DNA of 20,000 bases from the IMG/VR virus record IMGVR_UViG_3300033146_001398; one strand, 5' to 3'. Below the pieces are notes generated by a model, which saw only the letters and a program-made list of their open reading frames with translations, was not told the DNA's origin and searched no databases. Numbering within the stretch: the first letter of the stretch is position 1; each line of letters starts with the position of its first letter. The DNA is from an uncultured virus (IMG/VR IMGVR_UViG_3300033146_001398). Its lineage: Duplodnaviria > Heunggongvirae > Uroviricota > Caudoviricetes. Below are positions 2,977-17,025 of the stretch, piece after piece. A program made the translations under genes and the position numbers.

Positions 2977-4692
2977 TTATACCGTCCAAGTTATTCCGTC
3001 ACTTTCTACACTGTCATAAAATTCATCATCATATAATATTTCTTTAAAAATATTATCGCCAGGTACTAAAAATAATAATAATTCAGTAGAAGCGGGTTGT
3101 CCTAGAGCATTAGTTCCAAGAACACCTGCAACAGGAGACCCCAATACAAATCCAGCTGAAACAGTCTCACCAATTTTTGTATCACCAATAGTATCTCTAC
3201 CTATTACAAAACCATTATTCATTAATCGTTTATAACCAGCAACATATCTATTTTCCATATTAAATTCAAAATCTAAATTAAATATATTAATTAATAAATC
3301 TGTAGTTCTAGATTCTTTTTCTTCTAATCTTTTTATTCTATCTGCTGCGTTAGTCTCAAAATCATATGTTCTAGAAATTTCATCACCTAACGTAACTTCA
3401 TCGGGTTTATAAGGGTAAAACCATTTAAGTGTAGATATTAACATTGTTTCATCTATATTATTAACACTATCAACTACTCTATACTTCCTACCAACTATAA
3501 CTTCACTTGCACCTGTTATTTCTACAGTTGAACTTTTAAATGGCGTAGAATATCTATCTAAATAATTGTTCATAAAAACTTCTGCATCTTGAGCTGTTTT
3601 AATATCATCTTTTTTAATTGTAGTTTCATGTAAACCGTATGAATCAATAGAGTCTAATCGTGTCCCGCTAACAGCAGAAGGTAAGTTATATGTATATTTT
3701 ATTTCAATATTATTTGTGCCTACAAGAGGCTTAAAACTTGGTTCAGTTCCTTTGCTTGTATCTTCAAAAAATATAGATTTAACTCTAAAATCTGGATCGT
3801 AAGTATAGTCGAAAGAACCAGAACTTGAGCCTGTTTTTCCACCTGTTTTTAAATTAGTGCTCGTGTTAGATGGTTTGACACCACTTGCAGGTGTATACGA
3901 ACCAACACCAACATAAATTTCCATAGATATAGGAGTAAATGCTAATTGTATAGTTTGCGCGTCTGTATTATCTCCGTCGTGATATATAGTTTCTTCTACA
4001 GCTTGCATCGCAGCATCTACAAATAATTTGTTTACTATCTTATTGTAATCAATATCCCATTCTGGTTGGTTAACAATATTTGTTCCTACTTCTAAAACTG
4101 TTGTTTCTTCTATAAAGCCCACTGGTTCAAAATAAATTTTATCAGTATTAGGTTCATAATAAGTTTGCCAATCCATAGAAACAGTTAAATCGTCACAACG
4201 TTCAAAAACCATATTATGATTACAAATAAATTTATCTAAAGTGTACACGTCACCAGTTGGTTGAATGGTTGAAGAATCACAATCTAACTCAGCATATCTA
4301 GTAATTAGTGTAGTAAATATATCACTAATAATTCCAGCTTCGTCATCTATATTTTTATCGAAAGATGTCGTGGCTTCTCTAGTTTGAGCTTGATAATATT
4401 TATCTTTGCAACTTAAAATAACACCATGCGGAGCAATTGTATAATTAACTGCAAAGCCTCTGAACTTATAATTTTCTGTAGCAGAAGAAACACCGCGCTG
4501 TACTGTAATAATAGCGTTACCTAATTCACTTTCCAAATCTATAATATTGAATATAGAAGAGTTAAGAACAATCATGCAGTCTGCAACGACTCCTTTATAC
4601 TCTCCTTCGCCGTCCGCTTCTACAACATAGGAAGTTATGTCAGTAGAGTTAAGCATAAATTTATACTTATCAGGACTATTTTCTAATACCAT
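2977..4692 (-). CDS. Baseplate hub / Tal-like tail tip protein (571 aa; start moved from 4794 to 4692)
   Basis: Second gene after tape measure; hub-like motifs FRGFAVNY, YYEPNTDKIYF, IVNKLFV, DSIDSYGLHE. ATG at 4692 lies 1 nt after the upstream stop (TAA-A-ATG) and removes a 100-nt overlap. Confidence 0.75.
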   Translation of the reverse strand: MVLENSPDKYKFMLNSTDITSYVVEADGEGEYKGVVADCMIVLNSSIFNIIDLESELGNAIITVQRGVSSATENYKFRGFAVNYTIAPHGVILSCKDKYYQAQTREATTSFDKNIDDEAGIISDIFTTLITRYAELDCDSSTIQPTGDVYTLDKFICNHNMVFERCDDLTVSMDWQTYYEPNTDKIYFEPVGFIEETTVLEVGTNIVNQPEWDIDYNKIVNKLFVDAAMQAVEETIYHDGDNTDAQTIQLAFTPISMEIYVGVGSYTPASGVKPSNTSTNLKTGGKTGSSSGSFDYTYDPDFRVKSIFFEDTSKGTEPSFKPLVGTNNIEIKYTYNLPSAVSGTRLDSIDSYGLHETTIKKDDIKTAQDAEVFMNNYLDRYSTPFKSSTVEITGASEVIVGRKYRVVDSVNNIDETMLISTLKWFYPYKPDEVTLGDEISRTYDFETNAADRIKRLEEKESRTTDLLINIFNLDFEFNMENRYVAGYKRLMNNGFVIGRDTIGDTKIGETVSAGFVLGSPVAGVLGTNALGQPASTELLLFLVPGDNIFKEILYDDEFYDSVESDGITWTV

Positions 4693-4693
4693 T

Positions 4694-5197
4694 TTATATA
4701 TAAGCAACATACAAAGATAAACTAAAAGGTTGTTTATCGGGGCTTGCTTCTTCTTCTGTAAAACTAAAATTTGTAACATAAATTTTTGTAACATTAAGTG
4801 TTGCAGGAATTATCGCACCTTCAACATTTGCTGCTGTAGGAATAGATGAAGATTCAACACTTAAATCTTCATAATTACTAGTAAATGCTTTAGCAGTTTG
4901 TAAGCCGTTTTGTAGCGCTTCTAGCCAGTATTTCATTTGTTTTATAGAAGTTATTTGCGGCGCGTTAGTACCTGTAACAACAGTTGTTTCAGATGAATAT
5001 AAAATACCAGTGATACTAATCATTTTATTAGACCCGTTAAAATCATTACCTATATTAGCTGCTGGTCCTGAGCCAGGCATTACTGTTTGTGTAACATCTG
5101 AAGTAATTGTAGAACTAATAGAATCTATCATCGCTGTTTCAAAAGTAAAAGTATGGTCATTCGCGCCCACTTCAATAGTTATAGTTACATCTGTCAT
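4694..5197 (-). CDS. Distal tail protein (Dit)-like
   Basis: 167 aa immediately after tape measure; beta-rich with ISITGIL and IYVTNFSFTEE...FSLSL patterns typical of tube-fold Dit/initiator proteins. Confidence 0.65.
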   Translation of the reverse strand: MTDVTITIEVGANDHTFTFETAMIDSISSTITSDVTQTVMPGSGPAANIGNDFNGSNKMISITGILYSSETTVVTGTNAPQITSIKQMKYWLEALQNGLQTAKAFTSNYEDLSVESSSIPTAANVEGAIIPATLNVTKIYVTNFSFTEEEASPDKQPFSLSLYVAYI

Positions 5198-5200
5198 TTA

Positions 5201-7177
5201 TTATGCTCTCCCTGTCTTACTAGACCTTTTCATTCGTTCTATTCTGTTTAAAGCTGAATAGTATTTACCAGCCCAACTTTCTACTCGTTTAGCAGCGTCT
5301 TTAGCTATATCAGCTACTTCATTCATACCTGTAGCGAAGTTTTTAGACGAATCTATCATATTTGTCATCCCATTTTTATACGACGTTACAACAGTTCCTT
5401 CTGTACCTAACGCTTTTGTAGTAATAATATTCATATTGTCAGTCATATTTAAAAAACCATCTTTTGTATTTGTGTTAAGTATACTCATAGCTTTTAGTGT
5501 TGTATCACCTACATTACTAGTCATATCAACAAAATTATCAGATACTGTTGCATTAAATAATTCCATTTGTTTTGACGCAGTAGCATTTATAGTGTCGAAC
5601 GAACTGTCCATTACGTTTATATTGGTAGTCTTTGTATCACCAGCTGCACCATCATCAGAAAAACTAGCACTAGTATTAGTACCTAATATTTTCATTTGTT
5701 CAGTAACAATTGTATTCATATGTTCAAGACCTTTTTCAAAATTATCTGGAATTATTGAGTTACCATAATAATTAGTCATCAAAGTATTTTCATGTTCAAG
5801 ACCACTTTTTCTGCTATTATAATCTTTTAATGCAGCTTTACTTATTTCTTCACTCCATCTATCTTGAAATATTCGCACTTCTTTTAATTTAGCTGCGTTT
5901 TCATCTGTATACAACTTAGCTAATTCAGCTTTACTTGATTTAAAAGATGCAATAATTGACATAACAGGATTTATAGACTCTAATAGCGATCTATCTTCAA
6001 AATTAAAAAATCCTTTTATCATTGCTTTAAATCTATCTCCAGTAGTAACATCAGAAGTAGTAACTGTTTTAATTAATGTTTTTCGTTCTTGTGCCATTAA
6101 TGCATCTCGAGATGATAAATCAAGTGCTAGCAATGCATCATTAACTTCTCTAATTCCTGCAGCGTATTCAGCCAGAGGTTCTTTAGCTTCTTTTGCTGCT
6201 TTAATAAAATCATCAGTTGCACTAATAATAGAATCGTCATCTCCTGTTAGTACAGCAGCAACAAGTTTTACACCATCTTGTGTTTCTTTTCTAACTGTAT
6301 TCCATATTTTTTCTAATTCAACAATATCAAAACCTTCACCAAATAACTCAGAAATGTTTTTCATTTTCTGACTAACAATACTTTCAGATTTAGTTATAGC
6401 CTCATCAATAGTATCATAAGAATCTTTTAAAATTCTAAATGAATTTGCAAATAATACAGTTTCTGTAACGCCTTCAGCGGCAGCAGATTGCCATTTAGTC
6501 ATCGCAGTAGCAAACTGTTCTCCTAAACCAAGCATATCTGCGATTGGCGATATTAAAAAATCAGTAAACCCACTAAACATTAGTCCAGCAGTGTCTAAAC
6601 TTCCTTTCATACCTTTAGTTATTAACGTATTTCCAGCTTCGTCATTACCTTCAAGCTTTTCTTTCATACCTTGTGCAACTAATGAGTTAGCTGCAGCCAT
6701 TCCTTGAATCGCTATTTTTCTAAACGGCATCATAAAAGCATTCATTGCTTGAAGAATTGGTCTCATCATTGCAAAAATTGGCACTATTAAAAACATAAAT
6801 GCTTCACTAATAGGTTTTAAGAACGTTTTTAAAAAGCCGCCTATTTGACTCAACATTTCCATAACAGGAGAAAATAAAGAAACAGCGCCAACTACAGCTA
6901 TTAAAGATAGTGATACAGTTTTAAGAAAACTTAAACCACTTTTAAGCATCTTCATTGCACCTCCTAACATATTTCCTAAACCACCTGACTTTCCGCCAGA
7001 ATTTGTAGAACTTGATTTAGAATCTGGAATAACTGATTCAGCTGTTTTTAAAGAATCTGAAACCATATCAACGACTCCTTTACCGATTCCACTCATTAAA
7101 GACTCTAGTTGTTTAACTAACTTATCATCTTGTAATTCCACAGGAATTTTCATTGACATTGATATATTTTCAGCCAT
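5201..7177 (-). CDS. Tail tape measure protein
   Basis: 658 aa, Ala/Met/Lys-rich and helical-looking, hydrophobic stretch near aa 80-140, located after tube and chaperone genes. Confidence 0.88.
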   Translation of the reverse strand: MAENISMSMKIPVELQDDKLVKQLESLMSGIGKGVVDMVSDSLKTAESVIPDSKSSSTNSGGKSGGLGNMLGGAMKMLKSGLSFLKTVSLSLIAVVGAVSLFSPVMEMLSQIGGFLKTFLKPISEAFMFLIVPIFAMMRPILQAMNAFMMPFRKIAIQGMAAANSLVAQGMKEKLEGNDEAGNTLITKGMKGSLDTAGLMFSGFTDFLISPIADMLGLGEQFATAMTKWQSAAAEGVTETVLFANSFRILKDSYDTIDEAITKSESIVSQKMKNISELFGEGFDIVELEKIWNTVRKETQDGVKLVAAVLTGDDDSIISATDDFIKAAKEAKEPLAEYAAGIREVNDALLALDLSSRDALMAQERKTLIKTVTTSDVTTGDRFKAMIKGFFNFEDRSLLESINPVMSIIASFKSSKAELAKLYTDENAAKLKEVRIFQDRWSEEISKAALKDYNSRKSGLEHENTLMTNYYGNSIIPDNFEKGLEHMNTIVTEQMKILGTNTSASFSDDGAAGDTKTTNINVMDSSFDTINATASKQMELFNATVSDNFVDMTSNVGDTTLKAMSILNTNTKDGFLNMTDNMNIITTKALGTEGTVVTSYKNGMTNMIDSSKNFATGMNEVADIAKDAAKRVESWAGKYYSALNRIERMKRSSKTGRA

Positions 7178-11850: not shown

Positions 11851-12144
11851 TTACTTTAATGCCCAGTACATAGCAGTTAAATGGTGAGTAGAGTCTCCTT
11901 TATTCCATTCATCTGCATATTTTTTAGCATAGCCATCAGTAACCCATTTTTCCATTGCACCATCAAACCCAATATCGTACCCTAATTCTTCAGACCATTC
12001 GTACTTAAACTTATCAAGTATTTTCATCTGCATAAATTGTCTATCACTTAAAGGGTTATGCAATACCATAAATTTAAGAAAACAATTTTGTTTAGTACAA
12101 CCGTCTTCTTTACAAATCTCTTCCAACACTATTTTCGATTTCAT
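11851..12144 (-). CDS. DUF4032-like protein with N-terminal Cys cluster
   Basis: 97 aa; ILDKFKYEWSEELGYDIGFDGAMEKWV resembles the DUF4032 pattern (H/FKxxxSExxGxDxGxxxAxxxW); CKEDGCTKQNC at N-terminus; ATGA overlap with phosphoesterase. Confidence 0.65.
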   Translation of the reverse strand: MKSKIVLEEICKEDGCTKQNCFLKFMVLHNPLSDRQFMQMKILDKFKYEWSEELGYDIGFDGAMEKWVTDGYAKKYADEWNKGDSTHHLTAMYWALK

Positions 12145-12965
12145 GCAAAACTAACTCTTATATCGTTTTCTTGTCCGTTAAAGTTTATTTGTGCATTACC
12201 TTTATTAGTAGGACTGTATGCTTTTACTTGGCCATAACTACCCCAATAATCTAAGTACGCACCATTACAAACAAAATGCTTTTTCTTCATAATTAATCGC
12301 TTTCCACTTTTATTGAAGTCAAAAAATTGTCTCGCTTGGTATAAAGTGTCATGCACATGTCCTTGTAAATAAACATCTGTATTAACTATCTTCTCAAGTC
12401 TTAACATTGCGTTTAATTTTCCAGCAGGAGTAGTTGAACCACCACCACCATGAGTCGAATAAAGAGTGTACCTTTGATTTCCAACCATAATATAATGCAC
12501 TATTCCAACACCACCATAAGGGACATCTAACATTTTTGCCATTATTTTTGTTAAGTTAACTCCGCTAGAGTTATGTGTTCTAAGTTCATGATTACCAGGT
12601 TGCATAGATTTAAGTAAACCAGCTTCAGCAAGAGGAGTATATAATTCAACAGCGTTCTCTATCTGTTCTTGCGCAATATCTTCTTGTTCATAAACACCAG
12701 CACCAACTGAATCTCTCGTAGAATTCTCTATTAAATCACCAACATCAATACAAGGCATCTGTTTATCTACAACCCTTTTGATATTCTTTTTAAATAATTC
12801 TGTATCACATTGTTTATGTCCTAAATGTACATCAGAAAAAAAGAATGTTTTCAGTTCATCTCTGTCTCGGTAATCCCAAGTAATAATCTTTGGTGGTTGT
12901 CTTCCAGAAACATTTATTTCTTTTGACCAGTCTGCTTTGTGTTTCACATTAGATTCATAACTCAT
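12141..12965 (-). CDS. Calcineurin-like metallophosphoesterase (start 12965 or 12986)
   Basis: All five motifs present: SDVHLG, GDLIE, GNHE, THG, GHVH. Met at 12965 forms an ATGA overlap with an upstream small ORF. Confidence 0.92.
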   Translation of the reverse strand: MSYESNVKHKADWSKEINVSGRQPPKIITWDYRDRDELKTFFFSDVHLGHKQCDTELFKKNIKRVVDKQMPCIDVGDLIENSTRDSVGAGVYEQEDIAQEQIENAVELYTPLAEAGLLKSMQPGNHELRTHNSSGVNLTKIMAKMLDVPYGGVGIVHYIMVGNQRYTLYSTHGGGGSTTPAGKLNAMLRLEKIVNTDVYLQGHVHDTLYQARQFFDFNKSGKRLIMKKKHFVCNGAYLDYWGSYGQVKAYSPTNKGNAQINFNGQENDIRVSFA

Positions 12966-13078
12966 TTTTTCCTCATAAACAAACATTTTAACGCATTTTT
13001 AATATGTGCAAAAAAGTAATAAAAACGACTTCTGTCGCAGTCGTAAACTTCTACTCGTAAAGAACGATGTAAGTCCAT
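12962..13078 (-). CDS. Small hypothetical protein (38 aa), not in ORF track
   Basis: MDLHRSLRVEVYDCDRSRFYYFFAHIKNALKCLFMRKK*; AAAATG start context 8 nt after the holin stop; ATGA overlap with phosphoesterase. Confidence 0.45.
   Translation of the reverse strand: MDLHRSLRVEVYDCDRSRFYYFFAHIKNALKCLFMRKK
13010..13044 (-). terminator. Possible hairpin plus T-tract downstream of lysis cassette
   Basis: Minus strand ACGACT-GCGACAGA-AGTCGT (6-bp stem) followed by TTTTATTACTTTTTT. Confidence 0.35.
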
Positions 13079-13086
13079 TTTAAAAC

Positions 13087-13275
13087 TTACTTTTTCTTTT
13101 TAGTAGGTATCTTAACTTTGTCAGGTAAACCTAAAGTACCAATAAATTCTAAGCCTTTCCTTATCTTTTCAATTAACGTGTTATCTTTATTTGTTGGCGT
13201 TCTTCTTGCAATTATATTTGCTAAAATAACTATTGCCGCACAAATTTCTAAAACTAAATTTATATCTATTTCCAT
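13087..13275 (-). CDS. Putative holin-like membrane protein
   Basis: 62 aa; N-terminal hydrophobic helix, TPTNKDN motif (TPTxKDD-type small phage membrane proteins), basic C-terminus KKKK; GAGGT upstream. Confidence 0.65.
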   Translation of the reverse strand: MEIDINLVLEICAAIVILANIIARRTPTNKDNTLIEKIRKGLEFIGTLGLPDKVKIPTKKKK

Positions 13276-13282
13276 TTTTACC

Positions 13283-14017
13283 TCATTTATCTAACTTACC
13301 AAAATGTTGCTTATTTGCTGAACATCTGAAAGTTTTGTTTTGTGTGAATATATATCTTAATTTATATTTTTTTTGTCCTGAATACTTAAAGACTCTCGCA
13401 CATCTATTATTATCATAAACACTGTTTGTTTCTAAGCACCATAGTTCATTGTCATAAATAAAAACATTCCATGCGTGACCACCTTTACCACAAAAACCAA
13501 ATGCGATTCCCATTGTTGGTTCAATACTAGAAACGAGACCTGAGTGTGTTTCACAATCTTGTTTGCTATCTAAAATAGTCGCATAAATATCTTGATAAAT
13601 ATCAGGATAACCATCAGTATCATTATCACTTGTCCATTTTAGTTTTTTGTCAACATACTTGCCAACTTTTAAACACCAAGATTTAACATCATTAGATTTT
13701 ACTCCAACTTCCTTTCTACATTTTTCAGTTAAACGTGTTTCAGGTTGTATAAGTTCATTGGGATACATTGGATATCTTATTGTTTTAAATATACCTTTAT
13801 CTTTATATGCAAACTTTGGTACTTCTTTAAAGGCTGTAACACAATATTTTTCTAGAACATTTAATGGTTCTATTTCTTTCTCAACTATCTTTTCTATCTC
13901 TACTATTTTTTCAACTATTTTTTCTTTTATAATAATAGTTTTTATTGGTTTTATACATAATATATCACCTATTTTATAGTACAGTTTTTCCCATAATTTT
14001 TTTTCGGTCGTCATCAT
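13283..14017 (-). CDS. Transglutaminase-like cysteine peptidase, candidate endolysin
   Basis: 244 aa; WTSD...YQDIYAT...QDCETH (C155), GHAWNV (H181), WCLETN (E196) match a transglutaminase-like catalytic core; flanked by two small membrane proteins. Confidence 0.75.
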   Translation of the reverse strand: MMTTEKKLWEKLYYKIGDILCIKPIKTIIIKEKIVEKIVEIEKIVEKEIEPLNVLEKYCVTAFKEVPKFAYKDKGIFKTIRYPMYPNELIQPETRLTEKCRKEVGVKSNDVKSWCLKVGKYVDKKLKWTSDNDTDGYPDIYQDIYATILDSKQDCETHSGLVSSIEPTMGIAFGFCGKGGHAWNVFIYDNELWCLETNSVYDNNRCARVFKYSGQKKYKLRYIFTQNKTFRCSANKQHFGKLDK

Positions 14018-14286
14018 ATAAGTGTGTTAATTAAGAAACCCAAAATTGGCTTTCTAAAATCAGAAATAATTAATAGCGTAACAAGAACAGCAAAACAAAT
14101 CGCTTTAAATGGGTTTGAATAAATCCATAAAGACACACTTCGTTTTTTTATATCATTAATTTGTTTAATGTTTTCTGCTACCTTACCATTTGTATATTTC
14201 TGATGTGCTATAATTTCGTCTAATTTCCCGAACAAATCTTTAACGGAGTGTTCTTCAATAATTATGCCTGCTTTGTTCGGAGTCAT
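14014..14286 (-). CDS. Small membrane protein (coiled coil plus C-terminal TM; holin/XhlA-like architecture)
   Basis: 90 aa; LDEIIAHQKYTNGKV coiled segment then AICFAVLVTLLII hydrophobic helix; ATGA overlap with peptidase. Confidence 0.6.
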   Translation of the reverse strand: MTPNKAGIIIEEHSVKDLFGKLDEIIAHQKYTNGKVAENIKQINDIKKRSVSLWIYSNPFKAICFAVLVTLLIISDFRKPILGFLINTLI

Positions 14287-14676: not shown

Positions 14677-17025
14677 TTAATTTAATTTAGTTGAAACTCC
14701 GTTTCTACACCAATATAAGTCTCCACCTGATTCATATAACCCAGTTTTCCCTACTCCACCTGCTCCTCCTGTTATAGCGATTGCAGGAGTATCTGTTGAA
14801 TTACTACTAATTACAACAGGATAAATACCATCACCGCCGTCATAGTCAACATTCAACGCAGTTCCAGCACCATTTTGGTCTATGTATATACCGTTACCAG
14901 CACCGTTGTTTTGGATACTCATAACATCACCCGTTGCACTAGTGTTTGCTTGTTGAAAGTTTACTAATGCTGAGGTGGAAGTTCCTGTATGTAACGCATT
15001 TGAATACATTCTAAATGCAGACTCAGTCAGCACTCCTGAGGGGTTTATATATAAAGCAATATTATCACCAGCTTGTTCAATATAAGCAGCTCTATGACCA
15101 CCAGCACTTTGCACATGTAAACCGTAACTTGACGCACTTGTTGCTTCTGAATCTATCCTTAGCCCAACACCGTTTCCATTCTGGTCTATTAAAAGTCCGT
15201 TACCTGTTCCATCATTTTCAACTCTTAAAGTATCTTGGTCGTCTGAAGCATTGTCTTGTTTAATTTTTACAACAGGCGAGCCAGTCACAGCAGATGTTAA
15301 ATTCCTATAGAAGTAATTACTTGCAATACCAAATAAAGCAGGTCTTCCAAAATCTACATAATCTGTATTTGCTCCACCAATATCTTGATGAGCAAAAATA
15401 GTTCGCCCTACGTTATTTTGGTCTATTTCTAAACCAGCGCCAGTTCCGTCATTAGTTACCCTTATAACAGCACCTGTACTTGTTGTACTATCTTGTTGAA
15501 AATGAGCTACACCTACTGTATCTGCATTATATTTATAAAAAACAGCAGCATAATCAGTTGTTGCTGTCGAATTAACATTTAACGCTTTTCCAGCAGTGTT
15601 ATTATGGTCTATTAAAAGTCCGTTACCTGTTCCTGCGTTTTGTACCACAACTCCACTAGAACTACTTCCAGATTGAATTTCAAATTTAGCAGCACTTGTA
15701 ACACTATTTATATACATCGCTTGATTAGATGTTCCTTCATGATCGATGTTAAGTGCAGGAGCGTTTCCGTCTTGATTTATATATAATCCGTCACCAGTTC
15801 CAGCGTTATGAATTACTACTGTATCGCCAGTTGCGTTTGCACTATTTTCGTAAATGTAAAACATATTACGTGAAGTAGCTTCACTTCCACCACCTAAAGT
15901 ATAATTAACATATCCTGTTGTTGCAACAGTTTCAACTCTTACAACGTTAGCTGTTGTTGCTTCAGAATCAATATGTAAAGAACGTCCATTTCCGTCTTGA
16001 TTAATAAATATTCCCACGCCCGTTCCATCCTGTTGAATCTTCAACGCATTCTGGTCATCTCCTATATTGTCTTGTTCTATGAATACTACAGGTGTATTAG
16101 TACTTGTTGATGTATCATTTCTATACACATGCATAGAACCATTAGTGTTTGCTAAATCGTTAAATTGAGTATAAAAATTACCAGCCTGTAATTTTGCTAT
16201 ATTAGCACCATATCCTGTTACTATATTTAATCCGAAATTACTTGTACTTGTAGCTCTACTATCTATATCAAAGGCAATTCCATTACCATTTTGAGTTATC
16301 TCTAACGCATGTCCAGTCCCACCTTCTAATATTTGAAGTGCAGAATTGGAGCCAGCATTATATATTTGCATTGCGGTGTTGTTAGAACTAGCACTTCCTT
16401 GTGATACTTTAAACAACGCAGCATTACTCGCGTGAGTAACACTAGATGAAGAGTCTATTAATAGTGCATTTTGCCCGTTTGCTAATGATTCAGTCTGTCG
16501 AATACGTGAGCCGTTGGCACTATCACTATTTATTGTTAGTGGTTTTAACGCAGGATTTGTAGTATTTATAACGAGGTTTCCATCAATAATTCCACCCGTT
16601 AAAGGTAGATGCCCAATATTTCTATAAGCTGTATTTGCTGTTATAGTTGCGCTATTTAACACATGAGTGTGACTTGTCGCACTTACAGAGTTAGTTGTAT
16701 CATCAGTAATTTCAGAAGGAGTTCCTAATATAATATCACCAGTACTAGTAATAGTTGTAAAATTTAAACCCGCTCCAGCAGCAACAGAGCTAACACCAAG
16801 AAGTTCTGTATCATCTACATATTTTTTAGTAGCTAAATCTAAATCAGCTATAGGTGCAATACCTGAAATAGGAGAAGTAAATCCACGACTGCCATCAACT
16901 AATATATATTGTGAATGGTCATCTGAGTCTAAACCAAGTAAACCACTGTGTATTCCAGTACTTTCTGTAATTATAAAAGACACATCTTCTGATTCTGTTA
17001 TACTTAAATTAATATCTTCATCCAT
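14677..17025 (-). CDS. Fibre protein with repetitive beta-solenoid body
   Basis: 782 aa; N-terminal HSGLLGLDSDDHSQY and DLATKKYVD fibre motifs; repeated GxGxGLxIxQxGxG units; C-terminal GLYESGGDLYW. Confidence 0.8.
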   Translation of the reverse strand: MDEDINLSITESEDVSFIITESTGIHSGLLGLDSDDHSQYILVDGSRGFTSPISGIAPIADLDLATKKYVDDTELLGVSSVAAGAGLNFTTITSTGDIILGTPSEITDDTTNSVSATSHTHVLNSATITANTAYRNIGHLPLTGGIIDGNLVINTTNPALKPLTINSDSANGSRIRQTESLANGQNALLIDSSSSVTHASNAALFKVSQGSASSNNTAMQIYNAGSNSALQILEGGTGHALEITQNGNGIAFDIDSRATSTSNFGLNIVTGYGANIAKLQAGNFYTQFNDLANTNGSMHVYRNDTSTSTNTPVVFIEQDNIGDDQNALKIQQDGTGVGIFINQDGNGRSLHIDSEATTANVVRVETVATTGYVNYTLGGGSEATSRNMFYIYENSANATGDTVVIHNAGTGDGLYINQDGNAPALNIDHEGTSNQAMYINSVTSAAKFEIQSGSSSSGVVVQNAGTGNGLLIDHNNTAGKALNVNSTATTDYAAVFYKYNADTVGVAHFQQDSTTSTGAVIRVTNDGTGAGLEIDQNNVGRTIFAHQDIGGANTDYVDFGRPALFGIASNYFYRNLTSAVTGSPVVKIKQDNASDDQDTLRVENDGTGNGLLIDQNGNGVGLRIDSEATSASSYGLHVQSAGGHRAAYIEQAGDNIALYINPSGVLTESAFRMYSNALHTGTSTSALVNFQQANTSATGDVMSIQNNGAGNGIYIDQNGAGTALNVDYDGGDGIYPVVISSNSTDTPAIAITGGAGGVGKTGLYESGGDLYWCRNGVSTKLN
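15182..15633. repeat. 29-bp exact direct repeat inside fibre gene (15182-15210 and 15605-15633)
   Basis: tggtctattaaaagtccgttacctgttcc twice, 423 nt apart (in frame), encoding GTGNGLLID. Confidence 0.9.

Follow-up and report, generated by a model that had tools for sequence, protein, structure and literature searches.

A transglutaminase-like cysteine protease gene between two small membrane-protein genes, a candidate lysis cassette in the late region of an uncultured tailed virus

LapG and DvhG, two related members of the BTLCP family (MEROPS C93, PF06035; PDB 4FGO and 4U65), provide the nearest described counterparts of the viral enzyme reported here. LapG sets surface adhesins free by site-specific proteolysis that depends on calcium (excerpts of PMC13090378 and PMC4359373). 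In DvhG, the residues D316, C317 and E318 are needed for activity, the cleavage being calcium-dependent (excerpt of PMC13090378). A transglutaminase-like Cys-His-acid core is also found in the viral proteins PeiW and PeiP (C71; PDB 8JX4 and 8Z4F), for which a role in lysis has been proposed. The fungal chimerolectins MOA and PSL (PF18021, Agglutinin_C; PDB 2IHO and 3PHZ) carry a calcium-type, papain-like Cys-His-Glu protease domain, and the His of MOA is anchored by Glu274 (excerpt of PMC8244254). As for lysis cassettes, xhlA-xhlB-xlyA of PBSX combines two small membrane genes with a signal-less hydrolase gene after the tail genes, and XhlA is the essential holin of this cassette (excerpt of PMC6834076). 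Holins can be recognised as small proteins with at least one transmembrane (TM) segment and a charged tail that are encoded beside a lysin gene (excerpt of PMC10791045). In Poseidoniales viruses, an amidase and a phosphoesterase are neighbours of putative holins (excerpt of PMC11706807). We found no description of the cassette presented below in the literature searched, which was largely outside subscription journals, and neither transglutaminase nor C93 is mentioned in the excerpt of PMC12596118.

Gene layout of the window

The window, meaning the whole stretch of 20,000 nucleotides that was analysed, comes from the uncultured virus IMGVR_UViG_3300033146_001398. It represents 20 kb of a 74,256-bp contig and covers late genes of a tailed virus, on the minus strand. 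The window encodes a tail tube (PF18906, E 4e-10), proteins of the neck and head closure and fibre-like proteins, and the tail is of the non-contractile type. The features of the locus are as follows.

14677..17025, minus strand: 782-aa repeat-rich fibre-like protein (context; no Pfam match, label from repeats and position)
14014..14286, minus strand: 90-aa membrane-protein gene, holin-like candidate 1 (ORF with one C-terminal hydrophobic segment)
13283..14017, minus strand: gene of the 244-aa transglutaminase-like (LapG/BTLCP-like) cysteine protease (model and profile comparisons)
13553..13555, minus strand: Cys155 codon, predicted nucleophile in D154-C155-E156 and intein site of relatives (alignment)
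13475..13477, minus strand: His181 codon, predicted catalytic base (alignment; model strand 179-188)
13430..13432, minus strand: Glu196 codon, predicted third triad residue (alignment)
13087..13275, minus strand: 62-aa TPTxKD-family membrane-protein gene, holin-like candidate 2 (phrog_9685 match)
13025..13044, minus strand: hairpin and T-run, possible end of a transcription unit (weak; position suggestive, frequency that of chance)
12141..12986, minus strand: calcineurin-like metallophosphoesterase (context; phrog_7339, E 1e-37)

The three central genes are tightly packed: the stop of the 90-aa gene shares 4 nt with the start of the protease gene, and the gap between the protease gene and the 62-aa gene is 7 nt. 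These coordinates confirm the three closely linked genes of the initial annotation, and its two small membrane proteins indeed have one hydrophobic segment each. In the direction of transcription, the fibre-like genes are followed by two small acidic ORFs and then by the 90-aa, 244-aa and 62-aa genes. After a 100-bp gap with the hairpin come the metallophosphoesterase gene and the neck and tail genes. One hairpin with a T-run was found between 11700 and 15000, against 0.9 expected by chance, and promoter-like sites are likewise at chance level (15 against 15.9 expected). The metallophosphoesterase gene follows the cassette in the window and in the related locus L005 and lies two genes later in L001. 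A metallophosphoesterase gene recurs beside the membrane-gene cluster in the window, L005, L001 and L026. Positions 630-2975 of the window encode a tail-end protein of 781 aa that carries LamG/concanavalin domains and is likely to be a glycan-binding adhesin.

In Pfam and PHROGs, none of the 22 window ORFs matched an amidase, a muramidase, a spanin, a holin, PMBR or C71, in agreement with the earlier observation that muramidase, amidase and spanin genes are not recognisable here. This absence of an endolysin is limited to the window, because only 20 kb of the 74,256-bp contig was examined.

The 244-aa enzyme

The 244-aa protein consists of a variable N-terminal helical extension and a catalytic domain at about residues 50-242. 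The best Foldseek match of its AlphaFold2 model (pLDDT 81.9) is LapG (E 2.4e-4), with PeiW and PeiP at ranks 31 and 36. In VIA-align, LapG and the model superimpose with Z 11.3 and an rmsd of 3.4 Å over 136 residues, and axonemal transglutaminase-like domains tie with LapG. Z values of 9-11.8 to LapG, TglA, factor XIII and TG2/3 place the model in the transglutaminase core fold, and a TM of 0.63 was obtained against a DUF553/Transglut_core cluster of the Atlas. The window protease has no significant Pfam match, PF06035, PMBR and C71 all being absent at E ≤ 1, and PF06035 is matched only by distant relatives outside the core of the protease family. The family profile (A2) matches LapG (E 4e-6) with the aligned stretch D...DY..P.E.L...GDCED. 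The Z values to PeiW and PeiP are 7.8 and 7.5; with this value for PeiW against 11.3 for LapG, and with C71 and PMBR absent, we rejected membership in the PeiW group. The transglutaminase-like fold originally suggested for this gene, with PeiW/PeiP as known counterparts, stands, whereas the nearest relatives are LapG/BTLCP and, through the short form described below, MOA.

A profile search gave 478 representatives at E ≤ 0.001, 132 of them at E ≤ 1e-10. We aligned 112 near-full-length members (99 from the profile search and 13 further ones); fragments, proteins with an intein, four close relatives and hits with E values above about 1e-20 were excluded. C155, H181 and E196 are invariant in 17/17 close relatives. 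Across the alignment, C155 and H181 are each present in 112/112 proteins, with Glu at position 196 in 65 of them and Asp in the other 47. The Cys-His-Glu residues pointed out previously are thus present and are kept as C, H and E/D in all 112 relatives. In the model, helix 155-165 begins with C155, strand 179-188 contains H181 and strand 191-196 ends with E196. Glu196 aligns with the E of an EPQ motif in the short form, and this EPQ aligns with the EPQ of MOA. Among acidic positions, D139 and D154 are invariant, position 131 is D or E in 112/112 and position 156 is E in 98 and D in 14 relatives. D131, D139, D154 and E/D156 align with the calcium-motif region of LapG and may form a Ca2+ site, as predicted from the alignment. 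Taken together, the structural model and the sequence comparisons support a transglutaminase-like fold with an intact predicted triad.

Inteins favour essential conserved sites. Among seven longer relatives examined (P0062, P0080, P0101, P0107, P0118, P0129 and P0135), six have Hint or intein matches, and a LAGLIDADG match is found in four. The intein is inserted between D154 and C155 and ends before C-E-D, as placed by script in five proteins and by eye in one. The seventh protein, P0135, has the first junction only, followed by an unrelated zinc-ribbon-like sequence, and duplicates the N-terminus of another relative. The intein site and the 112/112 conservation of the triad both count for an enzyme that is probably active and under selection.

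No export signal, either a signal peptide or an N-terminal TM segment, was found in the protease family by hydropathy. A hydrophobic 19-residue Kyte-Doolittle window above 1.6 occurs in only 2/112 relatives, and the peak of the window protease is 1.11; therefore, the protease family looks cytoplasmic. The helical or coiled-coil extension at the N-terminus has a median length of 74 residues. The peptidase had already been described as having no signal peptide or pseudomurein-binding repeats, and hydropathy and Pfam, respectively, bear this out.

Membrane-protein partners and gene neighbourhoods

The 90-aa protein has a soluble helical N-terminal part and a hydrophobic peak of 1.96 at residue 59 (19-residue Kyte-Doolittle window). 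In the 62-aa protein, a hydrophobic peak of 2.42 at residue 5 is followed by TPTNKD, an amphipathic segment and a basic tail. Pfam and PHROGs link neither protein to a named holin family, and the Atlas matches are unnamed or under the bar. The 90-aa protein has no family match of its own in Pfam or PHROGs. Its architecture is XhlA-like, and its positional equivalent in L001 matches phrog_1193 'hemolysin' (E 7e-5), which we take to be XhlA-like. Two further homologues of the 90-aa protein were found beyond that of G008 (see below). The 62-aa protein matches phrog_9685, a PHROG of unknown function (E 7.4e-10), and also phrog_402, likewise without an assigned function. Both small proteins have the architecture and the neighbour gene that are used to recognise holins, and they may act by forming a timed membrane lesion.

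We found TPTxKD homologues at 12 IMG/VR loci out of 219 pattern matches, one of them being the L005 virus. At the other TPTxKD loci (L014-L024, with the match at about 4001 in most), an endolysin gene (PF00959/PF01832) is a neighbour in 11/11 cases. In the complete phage G003, the TPTxKD gene lies 10 nt behind a phage lysozyme gene. A GH73 glucosaminidase gene adjoins the TPTxKD gene in ten loci of one phage group (six by Pfam, four by motif only), as the converging gene in nine and as the second gene in one. TPTxKD proteins are thus encoded beside endolysins in two independent bacteriophage lineages, and the protease takes that place in a third, which argues for a lysis slot. The placing of the three genes in a lysis module by the initial annotation is strengthened by these neighbours of the TPTxKD family. 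We regard phrog_9685 as a candidate for an unannotated holin family, one that is open to immediate testing with a laboratory phage. A tblastn search of the phage collection with the 62-aa protein gave two matches, both at E 2.

We then counted membrane genes around the long form of the protease, using crude gene calls and partly non-independent loci. A hydrophobic ORF of 40-110 aa lies directly downstream of the protease gene in 8/10 loci, compared with 3/81 other genes in the same loci. The count is 7/9 without the window, and 4/10 against 3/81 at a stricter cut-off. Before counting, we dropped L009 (likely chimeric, repeating L005), L013 and L025 (the same virus as L005), the duplicates L011 and L149, and L094 (motif in an unrelated 369-aa frame), and L010 was counted as a short form. 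The protease fragment at L009:1-285 repeats L005 and is joined to an unrelated sequence, probably as an assembly chimera. Upstream of the protease gene, the link with a membrane gene is weak (3/7 against 8/80). Of 7 loci, 3 have the full triplet, namely those of the window, L001 and L005, and on this count we rejected the idea that the three genes are strictly conserved together. L003 and G007 are long-form loci without a hydrophobic downstream gene. In G007 and G014, a coiled-coil/TM gene stands before the head-tail adaptor gene and the protease gene is found at the tail end. The triplet frequency and this separation indicate that the tight unit is the protease gene and its downstream membrane gene; of the three-gene linkage first proposed, this pair holds, while the triplet as a whole does not recur regularly. 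The downstream partners fall in at least three sequence groups, indicating that the slot is conserved and not one partner. The cassette occurs with a contractile tail (L001, with a sheath) as well as with the non-contractile tail of the window. In L007, L008, G007, G008, G014 and G009, the protease gene comes immediately after genes for tail or fibre proteins.

Two other genes were observed in this region. In G007, a small EF-hand-like ORF directly behind the protease gene (L150:14275-14490, Pfam E about 0.003) would fit calcium control. An acidic protein of about 190 aa with an N-terminal hydrophobic segment is encoded after the protease region in L007:2587-3180, L008:10793-11386 and L164:13840-14400. 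It had no Pfam or PHROG match in the two copies scanned, and none was found in GTDB genomes.

A short sister form of the protease was also found. An IMG/VR motif scan gave at least 118 stretches, from which the short-form sample was taken. Among the matches listed there are at least 11 short-form viral ORFs of 131-170 aa, and L010 makes at least 12 (L010, L043, L050, L062, L085, L092, L102, L107, L114, L133, L138 and L146). The short form has about 150 aa and the long form about 260 aa. The short-form profile matches the long form with a probability of 97.7 and the protease domain of MOA/PSL (PF18021) with E 3e-13. These short ORFs are stand-alone viral homologues of the fungal MOA/PSL domain, a possible link between prokaryotic viruses and a mushroom-lectin domain. 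A downstream membrane gene is found in 5/12 short-form loci against 25/243 other genes, among the matches listed. G008, a short-form virus, has behind its protease gene a weak homologue of the 90-aa protein of the window (13/24 identical residues, phmmer E 6e-4). A clear homologue of the downstream membrane protein of L001 (E 1e-12) is also encoded in G008. In G017, another short-form virus, a homologue of the downstream membrane protein of L008 is found (E 2e-5). The homologies in G008 and G017 indicate that the short and long forms share membrane partners. G014 has six tail-module proteins in common with the window, and a short protease gene and a 75-aa membrane ORF are found at its tail end.

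We also noted an 89-aa ORF directly behind the short protease gene of G009 (L164:14492-14761), with a PF09056 phospholipase A2 match (E 6e-6) below the cut-off; it is a possible membrane-attacking partner. The 39-kb G008 (L153) contains genes for a group II chaperonin, an ATP-dependent ligase and Ku, and has its portal gene inside the tail module (noted ORFs L153:9270-10694, 3100-3795 and 4548-5276).

Host signals, lysis and known systems

The host signals in the relatives are mixed, as judged from sequence matches. The capsid protein of L005/L013 matches only haloarchaeal tailed viruses (6/6 records from 3 viruses, 22-25% identity), and this virus has the gene order of the window. The best 60 PDB matches of the L001 ATPase are p97/Cdc48/VAT/AFG2/proteasome types. 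Archaeal marks of the short form are a thermosome in G008 and a prefoldin in G016, and the capsid protein of the short-form G010 has 11/11 matches to archaeal viruses. On the other hand, the G007 capsid protein matches 90 records, all of bacterial phages (21-27% identity in the best 20 of 90). The tail tube of the window matches 3 bacterial phages (23% identity), and its phosphoesterase matches 26 records, 3 with an archaeal host and 23 from bacterial phages. These bacterial-phage matches have 21-33% identity in the matches listed.

No archaeal marker gene was found within the 20-kb window. GTDB genomes gave no cellular relative or provirus: none of the 36 pattern matches was confirmed with profile A1, and none of 315 with A9, the profile of a neighbour gene. 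Four sub-family scans of IMG/VR found nothing. By tblastn, the protease-family members P0001 and P0047 have no match in 50,697 phage records, and neither the G008 short form, the G014 capsid protein nor the hub protein of the window has one in the phage collection. P0140 gave one weak 38-residue match to an archaeal pleomorphic virus (E 0.04). The methanogen virus vir520 has a phosphoesterase in common with the window and two coiled-coil/TM genes, but the protease is absent. HFTV1 gave no convincing match (E 0.023), and PDB contained no match to a primase-like protein encoded by L008. On balance, the host of the window virus is probably archaeal: the marks in L005/L013, L001, G008 and G010 make this the likelier assignment, as had been supposed before, within a mixed set of signals. 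The style of the genes gives an impression of a DPANN host.

We searched for another lysin in relatives. G007, a long-form sequence of 40,488 bp with terminal repeats, has no wall-hydrolase or lysis-category match in Pfam or PHROGs (74 ORFs and 5 gap ORFs). G008, a short-form sequence with terminal repeats, has no wall hydrolase in Pfam (58 and 3 ORFs). CheckV gives 55% completeness for G007 and 52% for G008 despite these repeats. Neither PF00959 nor PF01510 was detected in six-frame searches of G007, G008, G014 and G001, and the control, G003, gave a PF00959 match. The short-form viruses G012 and G013 have no Pfam wall-hydrolase match; by eye, ORFs in them (L156:6995-7711 and L159:6694-7263, both without a Pfam match) resemble permuted NlpC/P60.

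The locus can be read as a late lysis cassette, with the 244-aa LapG/MOA-like cysteine protease in the endolysin slot; the tailed virus probably infects a host without peptidoglycan, most likely an archaeon. Lacking an export signal, the protease would build up inside the cell and stay inactive at the low free Ca2+ of the cytoplasm. The membrane would be opened by the two small membrane proteins, as holin-type components. The protease would then reach the outer face, bind Ca2+ at D131/D139/D154/E156 and cut an envelope protein, for example the S-layer protein or its membrane anchor, leading to virion release. We assign a probability of roughly 55% to this reading, in which a holin-gated, calcium-activated protease takes the place of the endolysin and cleaves a proteinaceous envelope. 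It is favoured by the conservation of the triad and the intein site, the downstream linkage, the exchange of genes in the TPTxKD slot, the occurrence with both tail types, the lack of a recognised wall hydrolase in G007 and G008, and the archaeal marks in relatives. It is weakened by the mixed host signals, the lack of a named-holin match, the weak upstream link, the 5/12 count of the short form, the exceptions L003 and G007, the CheckV values, the endolysin absence that covers the window only, and a transglutaminase gene annotated in non-lytic archaeal pleomorphic viruses (excerpt of PMC10919331).

Alternatively, the protein might be a virion or assembly enzyme that matures or cross-links fibre or tail proteins, or breaches the S-layer from the tail at entry; the membrane genes would then be adjacent since lysis genes also end late operons. 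The position directly behind tail or fibre genes in the six loci named above, the N-terminal helical or coiled-coil extension and a fold common to true transglutaminases (Z about 10) are consistent with such a role. However, the protease accompanies both contractile and non-contractile tails, and a membrane gene goes along with it in its shifts between two genomic positions. The enrichment of the downstream membrane gene and the endolysin neighbours of TPTxKD proteins also make a virion enzyme unlikely. The pleomorphic viruses just mentioned would fit a non-lytic, LapG-like sheddase, which would remove a viral receptor or surface protein, serving superinfection exclusion or the detachment of a symbiotic host, or would process the small membrane proteins to time lysis. 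The adhesin-releasing activity of LapG and the EF-hand-like gene after the G007 protease gene point in the same direction. LapG and DvhG are, however, exported by a signal peptide or TM helix (excerpt of PMC13090378), neither of which the viral family has, and with the late structural operon setting and no other lysin recognised in G007 or G008, we consider a sheddase rather improbable.

Bacterial phages are matched by the tail tube and phosphoesterase of the window and by the capsid protein of G007. Together with the TPTxKD homologues in bacteriophages, these matches could also mean that the virus is a bacterial phage. Its protease would then be an accessory to a conventional endolysin elsewhere in the contig, or a PeiW-like endo(iso)peptidase of peptidoglycan or pseudomurein, for which the fold shared with PeiW/PeiP (Z 7.5-7.8) can be cited. 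Against this stand the lack of a recognised wall hydrolase in G007/G008, a protease without PMBR or another wall-binding domain, the two family members without a tblastn match in the phage records and the archaeal marks in relatives, so that a bacterial phage is the least probable of these explanations.

We suggest only tentatively, at somewhat less than even odds, a widespread and undescribed lysis route in tailed viruses of peptidoglycan-free hosts (S-layer archaea and perhaps wall-less bacteria). In this route, a LapG/MOA-type protease under calcium control would be set free by interchangeable holin-like proteins and would cleave the S-layer or the anchor of the S-layer, the long and short forms would fill one slot, and TPTxKD proteins would be a holin family shared with bacteriophages. 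The cassette is a testable candidate for viral escape from cells with a protein coat instead of a peptidoglycan wall. The small genes and the C155A and D154A/E156A mutants make the question of archaeal-virus egress testable. If true, this would be the first viral lysin to cut an S-layer, and it might serve as a tool to open the cells of archaea.

Compared with known systems, the window protease has the same fold as LapG/DvhG and the same D-C-E calcium motif at the nucleophile. It differs from LapG in having no signal peptide or TM anchor, in its N-terminal helical extension, in falling below the PF06035 threshold and in its third triad residue, which is Glu in 65/112 viral relatives. Moreover, its gene lies in a viral late operon with small membrane genes, and no LapD or LapA-type partner was seen. 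Like PeiW/PeiP, it is viral and signal-less, with a transglutaminase-like Cys-His-acid core and a proposed role in lysis. It is more distant from them than from LapG, and no pseudomurein-binding repeats, C71 match or link to a pseudomurein host was found. MOA/PSL is also a calcium-type, papain-like Cys-His-Glu protease, but the window protein has neither a lectin domain nor a PF18021 match, and its Z values are only 6.2-6.5. Finally, the arrangement of two small membrane genes and a signal-less hydrolase gene after tail genes is likewise found in PBSX xhlA-xhlB-xlyA (excerpt of PMC6834076). In contrast to the amidase or muramidase of holin-endolysin cassettes, the hydrolase here is a cysteine protease, and the small proteins match no named holin family.
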